IMG/VR virus record: IMGVR_UViG_2660238524_000003
DNA: 40,665 nucleotides
Direction: 5' to 3' (one strand)
Origin: a virus
Taxonomy: Duplodnaviria > Heunggongvirae > Uroviricota > Caudoviricetes
In this document: positions 4,684 to 39,603 of the stretch, piece by piece
Position numbering within the stretch: position 1 is the stretch's first letter
Layout of the letters: each line of letters begins with the position of its first letter
The notes under the pieces: model-generated
Told to the model about the DNA's origin: nothing
The model's input: the letters and a program-made list of their open reading frames with translations, nothing else
Database searches by the model: none
Program-made: the position numbers and the translations under genes

Positions 4684-5195
4684 TGGCTGTACCAAAACAT
4701 CTTCGCTTTTTTACGTTGTTTGTGGATGGTGAAAACGAAGTGGGTAAAGTGACATCCGTCACGCCGCCCAAACTGACGCGCAAAACCGACAGCTATCGTG
4801 GTGGTGGCATGATGGGAGCAGTAAGTATTGATCTCGGTCTGGACGACTCCGCGCTTGATGCGAGCTTTGTCATGGGGGGAGCTGTTCGTGCACTGTTCCT
4901 TAAGTATGGCGGCACGATTGACGGCACGCTGCTGCGTTTTGCGGGTGAATATTACACCGATGCAGAAAGCGATCTGTATGAAATCGAGATGCGCGGGCGT
5001 GTGACGGAAATTGATATGGGGGAGGCCAAACAGGGCGAAGCCACATCACACACTTACGCTGTCAAAAACACCTACTACAAGCTGAGCGTTAACGATCGCC
5101 CGCTGTGGGAAATCGACCTGTTGAACCACATCTACCGGAAGGACGGCAAGGACATTGTGCCTGACCGCATTCGTTCCGCGCTTGGGCTTGGCTGA
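4683..5195 (+). CDS. tail tube protein FII
   Basis: 170 aa; start overlaps FI stop (TGATG), as in P2. Confidence 0.9.
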   Translation: MAVPKHLRFFTLFVDGENEVGKVTSVTPPKLTRKTDSYRGGGMMGAVSIDLGLDDSALDASFVMGGAVRALFLKYGGTIDGTLLRFAGEYYTDAESDLYEIEMRGRVTEIDMGEAKQGEATSHTYAVKNTYYKLSVNDRPLWEIDLLNHIYRKDGKDIVPDRIRSALGLG

Positions 5196-5250
5196 TAAGT
5201 AATATGCAGGCGGCGCAGTGCGTCGCCTCTGACTGAAAAGGAGACAACTG

Positions 5251-5789: not shown

Positions 5790-8583
5790 CATCCGGGTCG
5801 CTTTCAGCGCCGTTGACAGGCTGACCCGGCCTGCCGAAAACGCCCGCCGCCTGATGGGGCAGTTTGGTGACTCCATTCAGCGAACGCAGGGGGCGATCAA
5901 AAATCTCGAGCGTCAGGCGCGTTCATTTGAGCGCGCCCGCGACGCTGTCAGTAAAGCGGATGCGGGTATCGTGAAAGCACGACGCCAGCTTAACGCCCTT
6001 AATCAGTTACAACGCACGGGTACAGTGCTCAGCGAAAAACAACAAAAGCTGATGCAGCAGTTAAGCACCCGGCTTGAACGCCTGAATGAATCGCGCACAC
6101 GGGAAATTCAGAAAATGCGGGAGCTTGGCGGAGAACTGAAACGCCACGGCATTTCCCTGACAGGCAGCGATAACACCATCCAGCAGGCCATCAGACGCAC
6201 CGAACAATACAACAACCAGCTTGAACGCGAACGGCAGGCGCTTGCGCGTGTAACGCAGGCTCGTGAGCGGTATTCGCGCGCGCAGGAAACCGCGGGAAAA
6301 CTGAAAACAGGTGGTGCGCTGGCAATTGGTGCGGCAGCGGCGGGCGGCTATGCTGCCGGGCGTTTTTTGCAGCCCGCGATCGGGTTCGGCAAAGAGATGT
6401 CCCGCGTTCAGGCGCTGACGCGAATCGACAAAAACAGCCCGCAGTTTAAGGCGCTGCGTGAGCAGGCGTTAAAACTTGGCTCTGAAACACAGTTTACTGC
6501 GAGTGATGCCGCCAGTGGGCAGAGCTTTCTGGCAATGGCTGGTTTTACTCCGCAGGCCATTCAGGCCGCATTGCCCGGTGTTCTTAATATGGCGCTGGCA
6601 GGTGGCGTCGAACTCGGCGAGACGGCTGATATAGGCTCCAATATCCTCACACAGTTCAACCTGACAGCCGATCAAATGGACCGGGTTGGCGATACGCTGA
6701 CAGCGGCATTCACCCGGACCAATACTGATTTACGCGCGCTGGGCGAAACCATGAAGTATACCGGTCCGGTTGCCGCAAAACTTGGTATCAGTCTTGAAGA
6801 AGCGGCAGCCATGGCCGGGATGCTTGCCAATAATGGTCTTCGTGGAAGCGATGCTGGTACGGCCATGCGCGCAAGTCTGTCCCGCCTTGCATCACCGCCA
6901 AAAGCTGCGGCTGATGCGCTGAAAGAGCTGGGGGTGTCAGTTGCTGACGCCAGAGGCAAAATGCGCCCGATGGAGGATGTGCTGCTTGATCTCTATAAGG
7001 CGACACAAAAATACGGACAGGTGGACCAGGTTTCCTTCTTCAAGGACATCGCCGGAGAAGAGGCGTTCGTTGGTTTGCAGACGCTTGTTGCGGCGGCTGG
7101 TTCAGGAGAGCTGCAAAAACTGACCAGAGAATTGCAGGGGGCAAGGGGAGAGGCCGATCGCGTTGCAAAAGTAATGGCCGATAATCTTGATGGGGACCTG
7201 AAAAATCTCGACAGCGCATGGGAAGGTCTTCGTATTCGCATCAGTGATCTGGTTGACGGTCCGCTGCGTTCTGTCACGCAGTGGCTCACGCGGGTGCTTG
7301 AAAAAATCACCTCGCTGGCGCAGGCCCATCCGGTACTGACGCGCCAGCTACTGATAGCAGGCGGTGCGTTGCTGGCAATGACTGCAACGGTTGGCTCGTT
7401 GTCGCTGGCTATTGGTGTGCTTGCTGGCCCGCTGGCAAAACTGCGTCTTGGCTTTTCCCTCCTGACCGGTTCAATGAATGCTGTCAGACTCCTGCCAGCA
7501 CTATGGGGAATGGTGACGGGTTCCGTTTCGTTACTGGGGGGCGCTATCGGGGCGTTGTTCAGTCCGGTCGGCCTTATCGTGGCTGCGCTTGCCGGAGCTG
7601 CCGTTCTCATCTGGAAATACTGGGATCCCATCAGGGCATTTTTTGCCGGGGTGTTCAGCGGGATTATGGAAAGGCTGACCCCGTTGCGCGAAACCTTTGA
7701 ACGGTTTGGTCCTGTTTTTGACGCAATCGGGAGTGGGATCAGCCAGGTGTTTAACTGGTTTAAATCGCTGCTGTCTCCGATGGAGTCCAGCAAGGAAACT
7801 CTGGATAAATGTACCAGTGCTGGCGAGATATTCGGTAACGTTCTTGGCGGTGCGTTACAACTTGTTCTGACACCTGCAAAAATGTTGCTGGATACGCTGG
7901 CGTGGATACTTGAAAAGCTTGGTGTGCTTCCGGATGAAGCGGAAAGGGCGCGCAAGAAAATCGAAGACGCACAGCGTGCGGCCATTCTTCAGGACAAGGT
8001 TGCCTTGCTTCAGGGGGACCTGGCGAAAATCAATCCGCCGAAGCCTGTGGAAAATGGCAATGGCACCGGAGGTGATAACCCCAAAGACAATAAACCGCTC
8101 ACAGACAGCAATACCGGTACGCTGCGCAGACTCAGCAAAATTGCTGATAACACAGGTAAGCTGGTTGAGGAGACGAAAAAACGCATTGGCCCCGGCGATA
8201 TTGTCTTTAAAAACCTGCCCCGAGCACTTGCTGTTCGTGGGGAGTGGCAGGAGCGGAAGATTGCGCAGGTCAGTAAGCCTGCCCCCGCAATTAATATCAC
8301 ACCCGTGGTCCCGGCTCCGCTGCCTCCGGCGCTGGTCCCTGTTGTTGCGGCCAGCTCCCGCCCGGTGGCGGAGGCTATACGATCTCCAGTGGCATCAGTT
8401 CCTGTAACTTCCCGTAACCGGGAGCCTGTTGCCTCCGGATTTGGTGGTGAAATTCATGTTCATCTGCATAACGTTGTTACGCAGAATCCCCGCGAACTGG
8501 CGAAACTGGTCGGTGAAATGGTCAGGGCAGAAATGGAACGGCGCGCCCGTGCCGGGCGTGGCAGTTTTTACGATAAAGATTGA
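5767..8583 (+). CDS. tail tape measure protein T
   Basis: About 940 aa, coiled-coil N-terminus and Ala/Gly-rich hydrophobic core. Start ambiguous (GTG 5740, ATG 5767 or 5776). Confidence 0.9.
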   Translation: MQIMKTLDIRVAFSAVDRLTRPAENARRLMGQFGDSIQRTQGAIKNLERQARSFERARDAVSKADAGIVKARRQLNALNQLQRTGTVLSEKQQKLMQQLSTRLERLNESRTREIQKMRELGGELKRHGISLTGSDNTIQQAIRRTEQYNNQLERERQALARVTQARERYSRAQETAGKLKTGGALAIGAAAAGGYAAGRFLQPAIGFGKEMSRVQALTRIDKNSPQFKALREQALKLGSETQFTASDAASGQSFLAMAGFTPQAIQAALPGVLNMALAGGVELGETADIGSNILTQFNLTADQMDRVGDTLTAAFTRTNTDLRALGETMKYTGPVAAKLGISLEEAAAMAGMLANNGLRGSDAGTAMRASLSRLASPPKAAADALKELGVSVADARGKMRPMEDVLLDLYKATQKYGQVDQVSFFKDIAGEEAFVGLQTLVAAAGSGELQKLTRELQGARGEADRVAKVMADNLDGDLKNLDSAWEGLRIRISDLVDGPLRSVTQWLTRVLEKITSLAQAHPVLTRQLLIAGGALLAMTATVGSLSLAIGVLAGPLAKLRLGFSLLTGSMNAVRLLPALWGMVTGSVSLLGGAIGALFSPVGLIVAALAGAAVLIWKYWDPIRAFFAGVFSGIMERLTPLRETFERFGPVFDAIGSGISQVFNWFKSLLSPMESSKETLDKCTSAGEIFGNVLGGALQLVLTPAKMLLDTLAWILEKLGVLPDEAERARKKIEDAQRAAILQDKVALLQGDLAKINPPKPVENGNGTGGDNPKDNKPLTDSNTGTLRRLSKIADNTGKLVEETKKRIGPGDIVFKNLPRALAVRGEWQERKIAQVSKPAPAINITPVVPAPLPPALVPVVAASSRPVAEAIRSPVASVPVTSRNREPVASGFGGEIHVHLHNVVTQNPRELAKLVGEMVRAEMERRARAGRGSFYDKD

Positions 8584-8595
8584 GGAGTCATGGCC

Positions 8596-9084
8596 ATGAT
8601 GATGATCTACGGCATGTTTGTTTTTGAGCTGCGCACGCTGCCGCATCAGCAGTTACAGCAAAACAAAAGCTGGCGGCATGTGAAAAATGAACGCGTTAAC
8701 CGTTCAGCAAGCTGGCAGTATATCGGTGCAGGTGATGATCGCATCGTTCTTTCTGGTGTGCTTTATCCTGAAATTACAGGTGGCGAAGTGTCGCTGTCGC
8801 TGCTGACCACGCAGGCGTATACAGGACGACCCTGGCCTTTGATTGATGGCGTCGGGCAGATTTACGGCATGTATGTCCTGACTGAAACGAATACGACCCG
8901 CTCCGAGTTTGATCGCTACGGTAAGGCGAAAAAGATAGAATTTTCACTGACTCTTGAACGCTGTGATGAGGATTTGCGGGAGCGCCTGCAATCCTCATCG
9001 TTCAGTGATATGCTGTCCGGCTTCAAAGATAAGGTGACATCATCTCTTAACAGCGCGGCCAGTTCAGTTAAAGGGCTGTTCTGA
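8596..9084 (+). CDS. tail protein U
   Basis: MMMIYGMFVFEL... resembles P2 gpU; GAGGAG at 8583-8588 favours ATG 8596 over 8590. Confidence 0.88.
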   Translation: MMMIYGMFVFELRTLPHQQLQQNKSWRHVKNERVNRSASWQYIGAGDDRIVLSGVLYPEITGGEVSLSLLTTQAYTGRPWPLIDGVGQIYGMYVLTETNTTRSEFDRYGKAKKIEFSLTLERCDEDLRERLQSSSFSDMLSGFKDKVTSSLNSAASSVKGLF

Positions 9085-30723: not shown

Positions 30724-31683
30724 TTACTCCTTGTCCATTGCGTACAGCCCATTAACCAGAGCAAACTGTGGCACCCCGTCCGCGATGAAAGTCGCATTAA
30801 CTCCGCAGACTTCGCGGATAGCGGGTGCCACAATCTCCGCCCCTCCACCGACAACCATCACCCGCCCGTAACCCGAAAAAACCGCCAGCGCGCGGATCAC
30901 GCGTTGTTTCAGTGTTTCTTCCTTTTCACGAATAACCGCCATCAGGCTGGCGTAATGCGCGTCATTGTGGATGTGCTGGCGCAGCCAGGCTTCATCATGG
31001 CGATGTTCGATAATGGTATTGGCGATGTGGTGACTGGTGCGCATACCGTTAGTGGCCATCACCGACAGTACGGCATCGGCCATCAGGGAAACGCCTACGT
31101 GTGGATCGCAAAACACCTGGCTGATACCTGCCAGTTGCCCTTGAACCTTTGCCACATCCAGCGTGGTTCCGCCTAAATCCACAATCAGCAGGGATTCAAA
31201 CGGACTCATGTCAGCCAGTGCTTTAAAGCCAGCCGGAATGGATTCAGGCATAACCCGCACGTTACGGATAGTGAATGCTTCGCCGTTCTGGTATTCCACC
31301 GGGCGCATAACGTTCGCTTTTTTGCGGTTGATGTTGGCCATGTCCGGCTGTGCGTTTGTGTCGAAATACTCGCTCAGTGGCAGGGTGACAACCACATCCA
31401 CCTCCTGTGGCGTGATGCCTGATTTGACCAGCGCGTGATGAATGGCGATTACATTCACATCGCTGTACTGGTATTGCGTGTCGGTCGTCTGGACAAAGCG
31501 ATCGCTAACCGGATCAAAACCATAGCGCACGCCATCAAGCATGTAGTTCGCGGGCTGCATGCCACCGAACGGCGCAGACCATTCCGACTTGAAGCTGTTC
31601 GGGCTGATGGCGTTGCGGCGTTCGCCATTCTCAGTCCATGCCAGCTTGATGTTGGTGGAGCCGTCGTCGATACAAATTTTCAT
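30724..31683 (-). CDS. ParM/StbA-like actin-family partition ATPase
   Basis: 319 aa; N-terminal MKICIDDGSTNIKLAW and later blocks (VMPESIPAG, IVDLGGTT, VGGGAE) match the ParM/StbA actin fold. Confidence 0.85.
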   Translation of the reverse strand: MKICIDDGSTNIKLAWTENGERRNAISPNSFKSEWSAPFGGMQPANYMLDGVRYGFDPVSDRFVQTTDTQYQYSDVNVIAIHHALVKSGITPQEVDVVVTLPLSEYFDTNAQPDMANINRKKANVMRPVEYQNGEAFTIRNVRVMPESIPAGFKALADMSPFESLLIVDLGGTTLDVAKVQGQLAGISQVFCDPHVGVSLMADAVLSVMATNGMRTSHHIANTIIEHRHDEAWLRQHIHNDAHYASLMAVIREKEETLKQRVIRALAVFSGYGRVMVVGGGAEIVAPAIREVCGVNATFIADGVPQFALVNGLYAMDKE

Positions 31684-31714: not shown

Positions 31715-31826
31715 TTTACGGGATTCTGAAATCCCGTTTTTGCCTGTTTTGTGCGCGCTTCATATATCGCTGCGCGTTTTTTGCTCATTTACGGGATTCG
31801 TAAGTCCCGTTTCTGTCTGTTTTTTG
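31715..31826. repeat. two ~39-bp palindrome-containing direct repeats upstream of the ParM-like gene
   Basis: TTTACGGGATTCTGAAATCCCGTTT (31715-31753, intergenic) and TTTACGGGATTCGTAAGTCCCGTTT (31788-31826, within the 3' end of gene A), 73 bp apart. Confidence 0.6.
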
Positions 31827-34582
31827 TTTCCACTGGTCAGGCCACCCCGCAGCAGGTCTGCTTTGCGGCTGGCGCGTTCAGTGGTTTCACTGATTCTCTG
31901 TGCGTGCTCTGCGTCGCGGATGGCGCGCAGCATGTCAGAAAGCACGGTAACGGGTGTTTTCATGGTGTTCTGGCCCTGCTGAAGTGTGGATGCCAGGCGT
32001 GCGGCGGCTTCAGGGTCTGATGCCCCCAGCTGTGCCAGATAGCTGGCGACCGGGTTATGGCGGATCTCCGTGCTGCTTACGCCATGATTACGGCTCAGGC
32101 GCTGCCAGAGCTGCGTGATTCGGCTGTCCGGGCGGGTATCCGGTTTGCGTACAATTTCAAATCCCTGCGGTGCAATGATGCTGCCGTCAACGTACAGACT
32201 GCCGCCCCGTAACAGGTGCTGCATCTGTTGTTCACCGATATGCAGGCCGAGAGATTCAGCAGACTCCCGCCATTCTTTAGCGAGTAATTCGTGGTTATCA
32301 GGCAAAGGCCGCTGCTGTTTGCGGCTCTGTGTCCAGCTCTGCATTTCATCGCTGCTGTTTTTTGCCTGTTTGTCACGAAGCGAACGCATCAGCGCCCGGC
32401 GTTCGTGTCGTTTCAGTGAGCGCATCCATTCGTTCACTTCAACGCCGTCAGGGAGCTGCGGCCACGGTGCTGGCCGTTCTTCCGGCTGTTCTGTCCCGTT
32501 GTTGTCCGTTTCCTGTACACGGGGACAGTTATTGCCACGAGTCCAAGGGGCGGCAGGGCCGCCCTGAAGGTCAAAACCATTTTCGCGGGCGCTGTCTTCC
32601 GCTTCCGGTTTACGTCTTACCAGCTTCCAGTTATCCGGATGCGTGCACACACGGGAGGATTCCCCGATGAGTGGTGACCAGATCCCGTAAATCTGTACGC
32701 TCTGTTCGCCGTAATCGTTCAGCTCATCTGCGAGGTCGTAGGCGGTGCGAATCAGGTAGTCCTTGCGTGGAACAAGCACGCCACCCTGTTTTTCAATGTA
32801 GGTGGCAAAACACCCGGCATCGGCGGCAGCGAGTACCGCATCCATTGCATCATCTTTCAGCCGTTGCGGGCCTTCCGGATTGCGTGCCATCTGGCTGGCA
32901 AGGCGGCGCAGTTCACGCCACACCTGACGGGAGGGGATGCCAAAGAACTGGAACTGACGGACCCGGTGAAGGCGCGCCCAGCCGATGGCGCGCTCCACGC
33001 TCTCGGCCATTGATTTTCCGGTTTCGTGGTCCACGCGTGGCTTGCCCGTTTTCGGGTCGATGCCATCCACGGCGCGGCTGTCCAGGTTCTTTCCGATGTA
33101 GGTGGCGATGTAGCTGGTTGGCGTGCCTTTTGAGCCGTCGACATACTCCACCTTAAAGCGCGGAGTAATATCATTGCCCAGCTCGTGGCGGTCTTCCTGA
33201 ATGGCAATATCGCGGGTATGGGACACAATGGTGTCGATTTCTTCCGGATGTGCAAAGACCATCATATGCCAGTGCACGGTGCCGTCATGATGAGGCTCCA
33301 CCGTGCGGATGCCATACCAGCGCAGGCCGTCGCGGTTCAGTTTTTTGCGGACCGCCGCAAAAAACGTGTTAACCAGGTAATCGCTGGAGTCGCGCATTGT
33401 GGCCCCGTTCCATTTGGGATTCGGATGACCGTTCTCCGTTGTGGCGTGGTATTTTGACGGGCAGGTGACAGTCAGAAACACCGCTTTGTCGCCACGGGCT
33501 TCGGCCAGAAGTTCCAGTCCCTTCATGGTGGCCATCATTTCTGCCTTACGGTGAACCGGGTTACTTACTCCCGCGTAATACACTGTCTCGAGATCAATCG
33601 TGAACCCGTCTTCATTTTCCAGCATGAAACTTTTCAGGAAATCGCGTGTTTTCTCGCGCTGTGCGCGAAACTCGCTTAACGCGTCCTGGCTCAGATAGGG
33701 TGATGTTTTTCTGGAAACCAGACAGGCGGCGCGGAGTTGTTCTTCTCTCCACTCGCAACGTAACAGCCACAGTTTGCGTTTCCACCATTCCGCACAGGTC
33801 AGGCGAAGGATTGCGCCCGGCAGCAGCTCCGTGTCCGGTTCGTTCCTCCGGTCTTTGTCTGTTGTCAGTGCGTCATAATGTGGAGGCATGGCGTGCAGGT
33901 GTAACGCCATGCGGGCCAGCATCTGATACGCCTTCAGGGTTACATCCATGGTCAGCTCGCCATCGGTCGCGCCAAAGCCATCGCAGAGTTTTTCGAAGGT
34001 GCTGCTGAACATCGCCGCCGTCATGGTGGCCAGCGTCTGTATCTGGTGTTTGTTGAGCTGCGGCAGGTAAAGCAAATCGTCCAGGCGTTCGCGTCCGGCA
34101 AGGGAGCGATAACCCGGTGTCAGCCAGCGTCCGTCAGTGCTATCCAGACGTTCGAATATTTTGCGCAGGGTTCCGCGTGCATAGCGTTCCGCCTGCCAGC
34201 TCTTTTTGCCTTTCCGGCGATCGGCTTCCTGTTTTTTGCGCAGGAAGGAGAGGTGGCGAATAAGCGGATCGCGCAGATAGGACGGCAGCAGGCGCAGCGA
34301 GGCCATGGCTTCATCCACCGCGCCACGTGCCTGTTTTCTGGCGTCTCCTGCCAGTGTGATGGTTTTGTCCTGTTTTTCCTGTGCGTCCAGGCTTTTATTA
34401 ATCAGGTTGCCCAGCGGCGTGGCTGAGAACGCCGCATCAGCCATTTCCTGGCGGCGCTCGTTCTCTGCCCGGTAGGCATCCAGCCAGGAGGAAAGCGCGG
34501 ATTCAGGAGCGGGGATCCCCGTTCCTTCACGCCCCACTGCGTGGCGCGGTTGTTGCCAGTCCCTGAGGTACTCTGCCGTCAT
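31760..34582 (-). CDS. replication initiation endonuclease A (rolling-circle)
   Basis: 940 aa; H-x-H metal motif (HWHMMVF) and position as in P2-like phages. Confidence 0.88.
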   Translation of the reverse strand: MTAEYLRDWQQPRHAVGREGTGIPAPESALSSWLDAYRAENERRQEMADAAFSATPLGNLINKSLDAQEKQDKTITLAGDARKQARGAVDEAMASLRLLPSYLRDPLIRHLSFLRKKQEADRRKGKKSWQAERYARGTLRKIFERLDSTDGRWLTPGYRSLAGRERLDDLLYLPQLNKHQIQTLATMTAAMFSSTFEKLCDGFGATDGELTMDVTLKAYQMLARMALHLHAMPPHYDALTTDKDRRNEPDTELLPGAILRLTCAEWWKRKLWLLRCEWREEQLRAACLVSRKTSPYLSQDALSEFRAQREKTRDFLKSFMLENEDGFTIDLETVYYAGVSNPVHRKAEMMATMKGLELLAEARGDKAVFLTVTCPSKYHATTENGHPNPKWNGATMRDSSDYLVNTFFAAVRKKLNRDGLRWYGIRTVEPHHDGTVHWHMMVFAHPEEIDTIVSHTRDIAIQEDRHELGNDITPRFKVEYVDGSKGTPTSYIATYIGKNLDSRAVDGIDPKTGKPRVDHETGKSMAESVERAIGWARLHRVRQFQFFGIPSRQVWRELRRLASQMARNPEGPQRLKDDAMDAVLAAADAGCFATYIEKQGGVLVPRKDYLIRTAYDLADELNDYGEQSVQIYGIWSPLIGESSRVCTHPDNWKLVRRKPEAEDSARENGFDLQGGPAAPWTRGNNCPRVQETDNNGTEQPEERPAPWPQLPDGVEVNEWMRSLKRHERRALMRSLRDKQAKNSSDEMQSWTQSRKQQRPLPDNHELLAKEWRESAESLGLHIGEQQMQHLLRGGSLYVDGSIIAPQGFEIVRKPDTRPDSRITQLWQRLSRNHGVSSTEIRHNPVASYLAQLGASDPEAAARLASTLQQGQNTMKTPVTVLSDMLRAIRDAEHAQRISETTERASRKADLLRGGLTSGNKKQTETGLTNPVNEQKTRSDI

Positions 34583-34588
34583 AGTGAT

Positions 34589-34954
34589 TTACTTCGTCAT
34601 GCCATTCAGGGTGTCGCGGCAGACTGTAGCCAGCCGCTGAATTTCCAGCACGGTGTCTTCTGTGTCGGCATGGCGATGTGTGATGCGGATGCTGTCGGCA
34701 ATCACATCGACGATTGCAGAGGATGGGCGCTGGTAAATGCCAATAACGGACGGGGTGCCACCTTCAATGCGGTAAAGCCTGTAATTTCCCTCGTGGCTGT
34801 CAATCATGTAGCGACCATCAATAACAATCTTTCCGTCAGCGAGCTGCGGTACAGGCAGGGATTTCAGGTACATGTCATAACGATCACGCACGCGAGCGGC
34901 AAGATCACGTTCTGTATTGAGCAGGTATTCAAGAAAGTCGTTGGCGAGAATCAT
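34589..34954 (-). CDS. hypothetical early protein
   Basis: 121 aa, AAGAGGA RBS, immediately upstream of A. Confidence 0.55.
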   Translation of the reverse strand: MILANDFLEYLLNTERDLAARVRDRYDMYLKSLPVPQLADGKIVIDGRYMIDSHEGNYRLYRIEGGTPSVIGIYQRPSSAIVDVIADSIRITHRHADTEDTVLEIQRLATVCRDTLNGMTK

Positions 34955-35026
34955 TGCGGCAATCCTCTTGTTACAGATGTGCGAAGGCCTCCCGCCGCAA
35001 GGTGCAGGAAAGGCCCGGAACAGGAA

Positions 35027-35257
35027 TTAATGGAGTTTGTTTTGCTGCTGGATGAGCTGTTGAAGCTCGTGCAGATCATCCGCCAGATAGCTGAAAACAG
35101 AGGCGGAATAAATGTTTGATAGTGCGTGGCTGCGCTCATGCAGCATATTGATGTGCATGATTTGCGCGACGCGTGATGCGCGGGAAAGTCTGCGGTTGAT
35201 TTCAGTCTGGATGTGACGACGCTCCGCGATAGCGCGGTGCTGTTTGCGGTTTGCCAT
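35027..35257 (-). CDS. hypothetical early protein (basic, 76 aa)
   Basis: ORF with AAGGGG-type RBS embedded in the adjacent repeat element. Confidence 0.5.
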   Translation of the reverse strand: MANRKQHRAIAERRHIQTEINRRLSRASRVAQIMHINMLHERSHALSNIYSASVFSYLADDLHELQQLIQQQNKLH

Positions 35258-35579
35258 GGTGTGGCCCCTTGTGTAGTAAGTTGTGAAAACTCACCATCCA
35301 GAGCTGCGAAACTGTGGGTGGCGAGACGTACGAGGTTCGCAGTACCGGCTACACAAGAACCCGGCCCGACCGAAGTCGGCCCCGTACGCCCCGCCATAAT
35401 TCTGACGCGAAAAAAACGTGGCAATACAGTACGCACAAAAAAACCGCTGGCGCGGTTGTGCGCTTGTGTAGTCAGCAGGCTGCGAAACCCGGCACCCGTT
35501 TTATGAGGTGCAGCGGAAATGTAACCTGACTGATTGCGGCATGGCAAGCGGTTTTTTTGTGTGTGCATGCTCTGGTTTC
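35258..35579 (-). ncRNA. structured non-coding element with nested complementary repeats
   Basis: About 320 bp without a credible ORF. CTTGTGTAG and GCTGCGAA(A)C each occur twice direct (35268/35463; 35303/35479) and once inverted (35349-35357; 35335-35342). Confidence 0.4.
35433..35457 (-). terminator. intra-operon rho-independent terminator
   Basis: aaccgc-tggc-gcggtt hairpin followed on the - strand by UUUUUUU. Confidence 0.6.
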
Positions 35580-39261: not shown

Positions 39262-39603
39262 ATGGTTATCTTGTCAATAGACTACGCAAAAAAGTTACGT
39301 CAGATACGTAAGGCGGAAGGGTTAACACAAAAGCAGTTTGCGGATATTACTGGGTTGTCTTTGGCAACCATAAGGAATTACGAATCGGGGCAAAAGAACG
39401 CTAGAGCAAAAATCGTTGAGGCGGTTCTGCAAGTCGATCGCTTTGAAAAATACATGCTGTGGCTAATAAAAGATAAGACGCTACCTGTCGCCGGGCAGAT
39501 TGCTCCGGCTCTCTCTCTTGATGGATCTATTCAGTCGGAGGGCGATCAGGTTTCAATCGGTATTACCCAAAAATCACCCCGATCAGGCCGCAATGTTGGC
39601 TGA
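39262..39603 (+). CDS. immunity repressor, HTH XRE-family
   Basis: ...LRQIRKAEGLTQKQFADITGLSLATIRNYESGQ... helix-turn-helix; start ATG 39262 with GAGAGG RBS. Confidence 0.8.
   Translation: MVILSIDYAKKLRQIRKAEGLTQKQFADITGLSLATIRNYESGQKNARAKIVEAVLQVDRFEKYMLWLIKDKTLPVAGQIAPALSLDGSIQSEGDQVSIGITQKSPRSGRNVG

Follow-up and report, generated by a model that had tools for sequence, protein, structure and literature searches.

The DNA analyzed in this work is a stretch of 40,665 nucleotides from a virus of the Caudoviricetes (IMG/VR record IMGVR_UViG_2660238524_000003), referred to here as the window. In database searches it matched best to whole genomes of P2-type phages in the genus Xuanwuvirus (P88, P884B11), with up to 100% identity, and the closest entries are entire Peduoviridae / Xuanwuvirus genomes, 33-40 kb in size; judged by its sequence, the element is a P2-type prophage of Escherichia coli that resembles P88 (Xuanwuvirus). 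An integrase gene and an HTH repressor gene are found at the right end of the window, the prophage C repressor is at 39262-39603, and the order along the minus strand is cox, small ORFs, a MarR-type wHTH gene, an Ead/Ea22-like gene, the RNA module that is the subject of this work, a gene encoding a 76-aa protein, orf121, gpA, and ParM. The product of the replication gene A, a 940-aa protein, matches Pfam Phage_GPA with an E-value of 4.9e-131, and the order orf121-gpA is likewise annotated in PV468777 and in P88. The possibility that the window represents a P4-like satellite, an element defined by the alpha primase and sid/delta/psu genes and by the absence of capsid and tail genes, was ruled out, given that the 940-aa protein is a P2-type gpA and that the best records are complete Xuanwuvirus phages.

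The stretch between the Ead/Ea22-like gene and the 76-aa gene (35258-35579) had been described in an earlier note as a non-coding element in which two short sequences each occur twice as direct repeats and once in inverted orientation, allowing two mutually exclusive pairings, one of them over the ribosome-binding site of the 76-aa gene, with a rho-independent terminator between the alternative partners. All of these sequence features were recovered when both strands were read again and searched with a repeat finder. The first repeat, CTTGTGTAG, is present on the plus strand at 35268 and 35463, and its reverse complement CTACACAAG lies at 35349-35357; the second repeat, GCTGCGAAAC, is present at 35303 and 35479, and its near-complement GTTCGCAG, which is one A short as the note had remarked, lies at 35335-35342. 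The terminator, formed by the hairpin AACCGCGCCAGCGGTT and seven T, is located between the upstream copies and the complement, and the downstream copy of the first repeat overlaps the AAGGGG motif. A 9-mer that occurs twice directly and once inverted within 322 bp was obtained in 0.27% of 20,000 dinucleotide shuffles, and the element carries in addition a second, independent set of repeats that is collinear with the first. Because all the flanking genes are on the minus strand, the element was read on this strand.

When the whole window was scanned against Rfam at the gathering thresholds, exactly two matches were obtained, which are adjacent and on the minus strand: isrK, and 35 nt past this leader, the C4 antisense RNA (Table 1). 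The two sets of repeats are thus what is called the a and b boxes in systems of the C4 type, and seqA, seqB and seqC in the terms used for phage P4. A permissive Rfam scan also revealed a sub-threshold match to c4-a1b1 (RF03163, 'a1, b1 targets of C4 antisense RNA'; 20.5 bits, E 0.017) over the upstream repeat copies. The predicted promoter of the leader matches the consensus at 9 of 12 positions and is nearly invariant across 43 relatives, and the transcription start predicted from it, G 35511, is position 1 of the isrK model. This model consists of three hairpins, the last of which is an intrinsic terminator; the terminator of the leader corresponds to this 3' hairpin, and among relatives its stem is invariant and the length of the U-run varies by 1-2. 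A second promoter-like site, at 35424..35396, would place the start inside the closing stem of C4, and was taken as a chance occurrence or as a reflection of the conservation of the C4 5' end.

Table 1. Position of the RNA elements, boxes and genes of the module within the window
Feature	Position	Strand	Basis and remarks
205-codon eta-like ORF	34951..35568	-	Covers the leader, C4 and site 2 and extends into the epsilon-like gene in another frame
Predicted constitutive promoter (PLE / PisrK equivalent)	35518..35547	-	-35 TTGCCA 35547-35542, 18-nt spacer, -10 TACATT 35523-35518; consensus scan
IsrK / seqA-like leader RNA, target site 1	35437..35511	-	Rfam RF01394 (isrK), 65.2 bits (gathering threshold 50)
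a1 box GUUUCGCAGC	35488-35479	-	Within a hairpin loop of the leader
b1 box CUACACAAG	35471-35463	-	In the leader, followed by the terminator
Leader intrinsic terminator	35437..35457	-	Stem-loop AACCGC-GCCA-GCGGUU 35457-35442; seven U 35443-35437, beginning inside the 3' arm; terminator scan
C4 / CI-type antisense RNA	35314..35401	-	Rfam RF01695, 83.2 bits (gathering threshold 45), E 4.7e-15, model positions 1-87 of 87
b' box CUUGUGUAG	35357-35349	-	Loop of the second C4 hairpin
a' box CUGCGAAC	35342-35335	-	Single-stranded joint of C4
Target site 2 (seqC equivalent)	35265..35312	-	a2 and b2, right after C4; sequence
a2 box GUUUCGCAGC	35312-35303	-	Sequence
b2 box CUACACAAG	35276-35268	-	Overlaps the Shine-Dalgarno AAGGGG 35270-35265
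76-aa 'derepression protein', P4 epsilon anti-repressor homologue	35027..35257	-	Pfam PF25738, 32.7 bits (cut-off 27)
Downstream cargo, same transcription unit	31760..34954	-	orf121 34589-34954; P2-type replication gene A 31760-34582

The C4 RNA is composed of a 17-bp closing stem, a first hairpin, a second hairpin, a single-stranded joint and a 3' tail with the sequence CCACCC. Folded alone, it has a minimum free energy (MFE) of -47.7 kcal/mol with a z-score of -4.46. The three helices of its scaffold are paired in 100% of 36 distinct relatives, with compensatory changes at four pairs. A closing stem like that of a tRNA is visible and conserved, and the CCACCC tail is invariant. Right after C4 lies site 2, and the Shine-Dalgarno (SD) sequence that overlaps its b2 box ends 7 nt ahead of the ATG (35257) of the 76-aa gene. 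This gene, the first one after the RNA module, is presumed to be the regulated gene. Its product shows 29% identity to the P4 protein epsilon (BLASTP, E 4e-9) and belongs to the same Pfam family, in which P4 epsilon itself scores 170 bits; among relatives 44% of the substitutions in the gene are synonymous as compared with 22% expected, and its message is C-rich and G-poor, with a C/G ratio of 1.5-2.25. According to PMC8628076, which cites Liu et al. 1997, P4 uses epsilon to inactivate the repressor of P2; by analogy with its homologues, the 76-aa protein would act as an anti-repressor.

The statement of the earlier note that the element lacks a credible ORF is doubtful. A 205-codon ORF, which begins 11 nt past the stop codon of the upstream gene and upstream of the predicted promoter, covers the whole element; since it overlies both RNAs, the region cannot be called free of ORFs. 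Its frame is kept open in 32 of the 36 distinct relatives, and the four exceptions carry indels or a point mutation that cause frameshifts or a stop, with the RNA elements intact. The ORF scores 26.0 bits against Pfam Phage_ASH (residues 16-108), exactly at the cut-off of 26, as compared with 82.4 bits for P4 Eta; it also matches several PHROG families with E-values of ~1e-15 (residues 4-112), and PGAP labels the region 'ash family protein' or 'similar to ash family protein'. The Phage_ASH match at the cut-off could merely reflect the same-frame translation of a homologous RNA. A BLASTP comparison of the 205-aa product with P4 Eta was not significant (E 1.5), so that the profile matches and the conservation of the frame are the only links between the two; in a direct sequence comparison, the ORF and P4 eta (199 codons) follow the same frame across both RNAs, and the difference in spacer length, 72 nt, is a multiple of three. 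Within the hypervariable boxes of the relatives with an intact ORF, there are no stop codons in the frame of the ORF, as compared with 51 and 30 in the other two frames.

From these data the region could be viewed as the plain 5' part of a gene for an Ash/Eta-family protein, in which the repeats would be incidental to coding; the PGAP labels, the Phage_ASH and PHROG regulator family matches and the open frame are in its favor. Nevertheless, we consider this explanation very improbable. The region scores above threshold with two covariance models, which take structure into account; changes at the variable positions come in sets of three that preserve base pairing, which no protein constraint explains; four relatives have a disrupted ORF and intact RNA elements; and no protein-level constraint was detected on the half of the ORF that overlaps the epsilon-like gene, the C-terminal half, where 29% of the substitutions are synonymous and 23% are expected. 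In P4, the equivalent ORF was first named as the cI protein, and the immunity factor later proved to be an RNA. Our reading is that the conserved property would be the act of translating the N-terminal part of the 205-codon ORF, as reported for P4, where the translation of eta from an upstream promoter prevents termination (Forti et al. 1999, as summarised in a passage of PMC10111431).

The conservation of the pairings, a check that the earlier note had proposed, was analyzed in 80 loci from IMG/VR that encode close relatives of the 76-aa protein, among which there are 43 distinct upstream sequences; 44 related prophages were included in the comparison of the boxes, and the pairing and ORF counts were made over 36 distinct relatives. 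In the alignment the scaffold is nearly invariant, and almost all of the variation falls in the six boxes: the box (pairing) columns differ at 0.338 per site as compared with 0.094 for the scaffold, i.e. ~3.5 times more. For each site, pairing was counted over 16 pairs (b' with b, and a' with a), which gives 576 cells. Between site 1 and C4, 100% of the cells are paired and 10 of the 16 pairs show compensatory changes; between site 2 and C4, 96.5% of the cells are paired and 9 of the 16 pairs show compensatory changes. When the partners were slid by 1-3 columns as a control, 30-56% of the cells could pair. In addition, RNAalifold without any guidance recovered the pairing of site 1 with C4, holding 11 of its 13 covarying pairs. 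The pairing potential is therefore kept among relatives by compensation, and the same nucleotides of the C4 RNA are able to pair with either site.

The relatives fall into 11 specificity types, in which nine b' and five a' variants are combined in various ways and always accompanied by targets that match them; some of these types share one box and differ in the other, which indicates that the boxes change or recombine independently. In a crude duplex calculation, the cognate duplexes were 10-12 kcal/mol more stable than the non-cognate ones. Given that the relatives are close kin that represent 11 types, the cells counted above are not independent events, and the robust part of the covariation consists of the 11 distinct, fully matched triplets. 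The exact b'/a' string of the window was found in 40 IMG/VR stretches, all of them with an epsilon-like gene and P2-type neighbours; gpA is present at every one of these loci that reaches far enough downstream, and the alpha and integrase proteins of P4 gave no match at any IMG/VR locus carrying the exact string. A possible cross-immunity between helper phages and satellites was also considered and is not supported in this sample: among 80 P4-like satellites there are eight b' and three a' variants, none of which is shared with the nine b' and five a' variants described here.

The control by RNA of translation or termination through mutually exclusive pairings, as suggested in the earlier note, is thus supported by homology to two Rfam families and by covariation; the interpretation was broadly right at its level of generality. 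Taken literally, the note described a purely cis-acting leader switch, in which the C4 loops pair with site 1 or with site 2 in one transcript, setting read-through and the access to the ribosome-binding site without a processed RNA acting in trans. The 272-nt leader, in its MFE fold as in the consensus from RNAalifold, has C4 paired with site 1 in cis and the SD sequence left free, so a cis switch would fit this result as well, and it has been reported that the read-through transcript of Gifsy-1 adopts alternative cis structures (PMC4825925). On the other hand, processing and an action in trans are established for the homologous RNAs of P4, P1 and Gifsy-1 (PMC4825925, PMC3632133), and the closing stem and CCA-like tail that are needed for processing are conserved. 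Furthermore, the boxes diversify ~3.5 times faster than the scaffold into 11 matched types, as under a pressure for heteroimmunity; this focused diversification fits an immunity determinant and not a private cis switch, and it is the strongest argument, albeit an indirect one, for an action in trans. A switch acting exclusively in cis seems to us unlikely.

We favor the view, to which we assign a probability of roughly three in four, that the stretch serves this P88-like prophage of the P2 type as its RNA module for immunity (or 'anti-immunity'); its counterpart by homology would be the PLE-seqA-cI-seqC region of P4, and its construction is that of the c4 region of P1. By analogy with these systems, the module most likely keeps the anti-repressor gene and the replication gene silent in lysogeny. 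In P1 and P4, RNase P cuts out the C4/CI stem-loop, whose 3' end is trimmed; in the P4, P1 and Gifsy-1 systems, the central stem-loop is excised as a small RNA that is also a trans-acting immunity factor, and the downstream effect is a translational block with Rho-dependent termination, in contrast to a purely cis attenuator. If promoter activity, RNA processing, action in trans and Rho-dependent termination are as in these homologues, in a lysogen the constitutive promoter would start transcription at ~35511, and most of the transcripts would end at the intrinsic terminator to yield an IsrK/seqA-like RNA of ~75 nt that contains site 1 (a1, b1). The read-through transcripts would hold the C4/CI stem-loop, to be excised as a stable small RNA whose b' loop and a' joint would pair with a2/b2 on the read-through transcripts, either of its own phage or of a superinfecting one. 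This pairing would cover the SD sequence of the epsilon-like anti-repressor gene, and the untranslated C-rich message would then be expected to be terminated by Rho, as happens in P4-type systems at timm, a Rho-dependent terminator within the first gene that acts when this gene goes untranslated; as a consequence, we propose that the anti-repressor, orf121 and gene A would not be made from the internal promoter. During lytic growth, the transcripts from the early promoter would carry the start of the eta-like ORF, whose translation across the leader, C4 and site 2 would let the transcripts escape from both the terminator and the antisense block; this role of the ORF in read-through is suggested by the homologues, having been shown for eta in P4.

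Site 1 competes for the same nucleotides of C4; hence, we propose that the ratio between the leader and C4 could tune or lift repression. The role of this site differs between the published homologues: termination in P4 requires it, and in Gifsy-1 it acts as a trans-activator, so that its effect here may be of either sign. It is conceivable that an activation of the IsrK type is dominant, i.e. that the short leader opens the read-through transcript in trans and turns on the translation of the anti-repressor, the module being mainly a trigger for induction. The leader matches isrK above the threshold and, with boxes identical to those of site 2, is able to titrate C4. In Gifsy-1, the translation of anrP rose >100-fold with IsrK in trans, extra IsrK switches on the anti-repressor and induces the prophage, and prophage induction required the isrK promoter (PMC4825925). 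P88 was recovered following mitomycin C treatment (PMC5285337), yet there is no plausible LexA box in the window, where CTGT-N8-ACAG has a single match, located within gene A and no more than expected by chance. Against such a dominant role, the effect reported in Gifsy-1 runs via a small ORF inside the C4-like region, and the SD sequence of the gene regulated here is within b2, which is a repressive layout like that of P4 kil and of P1 icd. Activation as the dominant mode appears to us quite unlikely; it is compatible with the main explanation instead of being exclusive of it, and both effects may coexist.

With a query coverage of at least 80%, the module is present in 1162 of 5426 complete E. 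coli genomes (~21%). Its left boundary is at ~35561-35565, where the homology with P88 begins, and at least five different upstream junctions are observed in relatives. No C4 or isrK match was found in the early regions of P2 and 186, and P88 has both. A literature search retrieved no paper on such a module in P2-type phages, and in a 2026 survey of P2-like viruses (PMC13100340) there is no mention of antisense, anti-repressor/derepression, Xuanwuvirus or satellites. The module, as yet uncharacterised, consequently places a well-known system in a new host lineage. The class of mechanism is already known from P1, P4 and Gifsy-1, and its understanding is unchanged; what is added to the earlier note is the identification of a named and experimentally studied system (P4 seqA/CI/seqC, P1 c4, Gifsy-1 IsrK) and the overlying eta-like ORF.

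These results have a bearing on annotation, since approximately one in five complete E. coli genomes label the stretch as 'hypothetical protein' or 'ash family protein' where two RNA genes are warranted, and the P88 reference shows it as a CDS on the wrong strand. They also suggest that a common group of P2-type prophages, unlike P2 and 186, controls an anti-repressor and a replication gene by antisense RNA, which bears on prophage induction and on which prophages exclude each other; an RNA-gated anti-repressor route is probable in this very common group. Besides, the 11 matched sets of boxes, some of which share one box, are a natural collection of candidate orthogonal pairs of RNA regulators and targets. 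A broader scenario, which we regard as possible but rather doubtful, is that the P88-like prophages, the kind that P4-like satellites exploit, carry their own P4-style kit, in which an RNA module would gate an epsilon-type anti-repressor and the replication operon. This would represent an RNA-based second layer of the lysis-lysogeny decision on top of C/Cox and a route of induction that P2 lacks, with at least 11 heteroimmune specificities arising by independent swaps of the a and b boxes, which would also be kept free of stops in the eta-like frame; the tools that P4 uses for hijacking (epsilon and CI) and the regulation of the helper would have a common origin.

The system of P4 is among the closest known ones. 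IsrK has been described as a structural homologue of P4 seqA, with the processed RNA derived from the read-through transcript lying downstream (PMC4825925), and IsrK and C4 correspond to seqA and CI of P4 (PMC3632133, PMC10111431). The P4 reference genome gives isrK and C4 in the same order upstream of epsilon, with a promoter of the layout TTGCCT-18 nt-TATAGT at the same place ahead of the isrK match. In both cases the two boxes of the RNA match one upstream and one downstream site, and the downstream b box contains the SD sequence of the first translated gene, which in P4 is that of kil, held in the b2 box UUCACAGGAGG. Also in both cases, an ORF of ~200 codons (205 here, 199 in P4) starts upstream of the promoter, continues in the same frame through both RNAs and matches Phage_ASH, and a gene of the epsilon family and then a replication gene are found downstream. 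There are differences too. Here the module is carried by a full P2-type phage that has gpA as well as genes for capsid and tail, whereas P4 is a satellite with the alpha primase; the spacer between the leader and C4 is 35 nt here and 107 nt in P4; and the first regulated gene is here an epsilon homologue in a frame other than that of the eta-like ORF, whereas P4 has in this place kil, which forms the end of eta and is in frame with it. The sequences of the boxes are unrelated, none of them being common to the 80 P4-like satellites.

The immI region of P1/P7 shares with the module the RNA family RF01695 and the presence of a' and b' in the RNA and of a1/b1 and a2/b2 in the transcript, the latter reflected in the weak c4-a1b1 match. 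In P1, the b2 box covers the ribosome-binding site of the first gene, icd, and the final target is an anti-repressor; the heteroimmunity of P1 and P7 arises from differences in the boxes, which finds a parallel in the 11 box types reported here. In contrast to the order c4-icd-ant of P1, no icd or ant homologue was seen at the locus among the Pfam and PHROG matches, and the gene with its SD sequence in b2 belongs to the epsilon family; an icd-like intermediate ORF is absent, and a small epsilon-type anti-repressor takes the place of Ant. Moreover, the module is located here inside the early replication operon of a P2-type phage, and its leader has its own terminator of the IsrK type.

The isrK-orf45 (STnc1160)-anrP region of Gifsy-1 has a leader of the IsrK family with its own promoter and a leaky terminator (PMC4825925), both of which are predicted here. 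Just downstream of this leader, Gifsy-1 produces from the read-through transcript the processed RNA STnc1160, which its authors compared with P4 CI (PMC4825925); in our case a similar processing would be expected from the homologues. An anti-repressor-like gene downstream and alternative pairings between the leader and the downstream region are further similarities (PMC4825925). Gifsy-1 is, in contrast, a lambdoid prophage of Salmonella with another anti-repressor, which is reached by translational coupling from orf45, and what has been published for IsrK is an activating effect in trans, no demonstration of a repressive C4-like RNA having been given there (PMC4825925).

As far as the arrangement of phage N15 is concerned, the likeness resides in a processed RNA of the same structural type that controls an anti-repressor operon in a temperate phage; the differences are that N15 is a linear plasmid-prophage and that its downstream genes are others. 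In work attributed to Ravin et al., 1999, the anti-immunity locus of N15 / phiKO2 is said to encode a small processed RNA, CA RNA, that controls the antA-C anti-repressor operon. N15 is also among the phages listed as having structurally similar systems (PMC3632133). Taken together, the defining features of C4, of isrK and of the P4-type immunity layout that can be read from the sequence are present in the module described in this work, the promoter of the leader being a predicted one.

What the Pfam family PF10554 (Phage_ASH) describes is the translated eta or old "cI protein" reading frame, which overlies the seqA and CI RNAs in phage P4; the score against its profile is 82 bits for P4 Eta and 59.7 bits for the old P4 cI coding sequence. 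The true epsilon protein of P4 is a member of a different family, PF25738, with a score of 170 bits. In a large survey of P4-like satellites PF10554 was taken as the "epsilon" marker (PMC8628076); since the family represents the eta/cI frame and epsilon belongs to PF25738, this marker tracks the RNA immunity region, which is also present in phages that are not satellites, such as the prophage in the window. The same stretch of RNA genes is labelled "hypothetical protein" or "ash family protein" in E. coli RefSeq entries, and in the reference record of P88 (NC_026014) a hypothetical protein is placed at 5033-5221 on the opposite strand, exactly above the isrK and C4 matches (5028-5225); this is probably a spurious annotation.

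Features of the probable immunity region and its surroundings
Feature	Sequence	Position	Strand	Remark
Left boundary of the module	window	about 35561-35565		
Inverted repeat, 21 nt	window	arms 35544-35564 and 35431-35451		90% complementary
Second promoter-like site	window	35396-35424	minus	TTGCCA - 17 nt - AATTAT
Counterpart of the P4 eta/"cI protein" region	window	35308-35568	minus	PF10554
ParM actin-like segregation gene	window	30724-31683	minus	directly after gpA
isrK match	P88 (L002, NC_026014)	5028-5102		
C4 match	P88 (L002, NC_026014)	5138-5225		
eta/old "cI protein" ORF region	P4 (L003)	8168-8767	minus	PF10554

The RNA module behaves as a mobile cassette. From ACAAAAAAACCGC onward everything is common to the relatives, and the upstream junctions are unrelated and of at least five kinds; each of them supplies an in-frame ATG, 17 or 20 nt ahead of the left boundary. 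The alleles of the replication gene gpA that adjoin the module are only 70-89% identical. Behind gpA, the ParM gene is followed by a partition gene, as annotated in records of related phages; in an integrated P2-type prophage this arrangement suggests a possible ability to persist in the manner of a plasmid. We found no plausible LexA box in the window, because the sole match to CTGT-N8-ACAG lies within gene A and is expected by chance; P88 was nonetheless recovered following mitomycin C treatment (PMC5285337).

Read on the minus strand, the upstream arm of the inverted repeat is ACACACAAAAAAACCGCUUGC; it shows complementarity to the leader terminator over the 3' half and the U-run. Given that this arm lies 5' of the predicted leader start at 35511, it would be carried solely by RNAs begun at the early promoter. 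The repeat could be a promoter-specific anti-terminator; alternatively, the arm could be just an A-tract UP element adjoining the -35 region. The repeat is invariant among the relatives, so covariation is uninformative on its pairing, and P4 has no counterpart of it. The -10 element of the second promoter-like site is the invariant AAUUAUGG, with which the C4 RNA begins; this sequence includes an AUG in frame with the eta-like ORF. This stretch could be conserved as a promoter, for RNase P cleavage or, by analogy with orf45 of Gifsy-1, for an internal translation start.

Among the P4-like satellites sampled from IMG/VR (L124-L203), eight b' loop variants and three a' variants occur in mixed pairs. 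None of these variants is common to the satellites and the P88-like phages, and in both groups the specificity boxes are diversified in the same combinatorial way.
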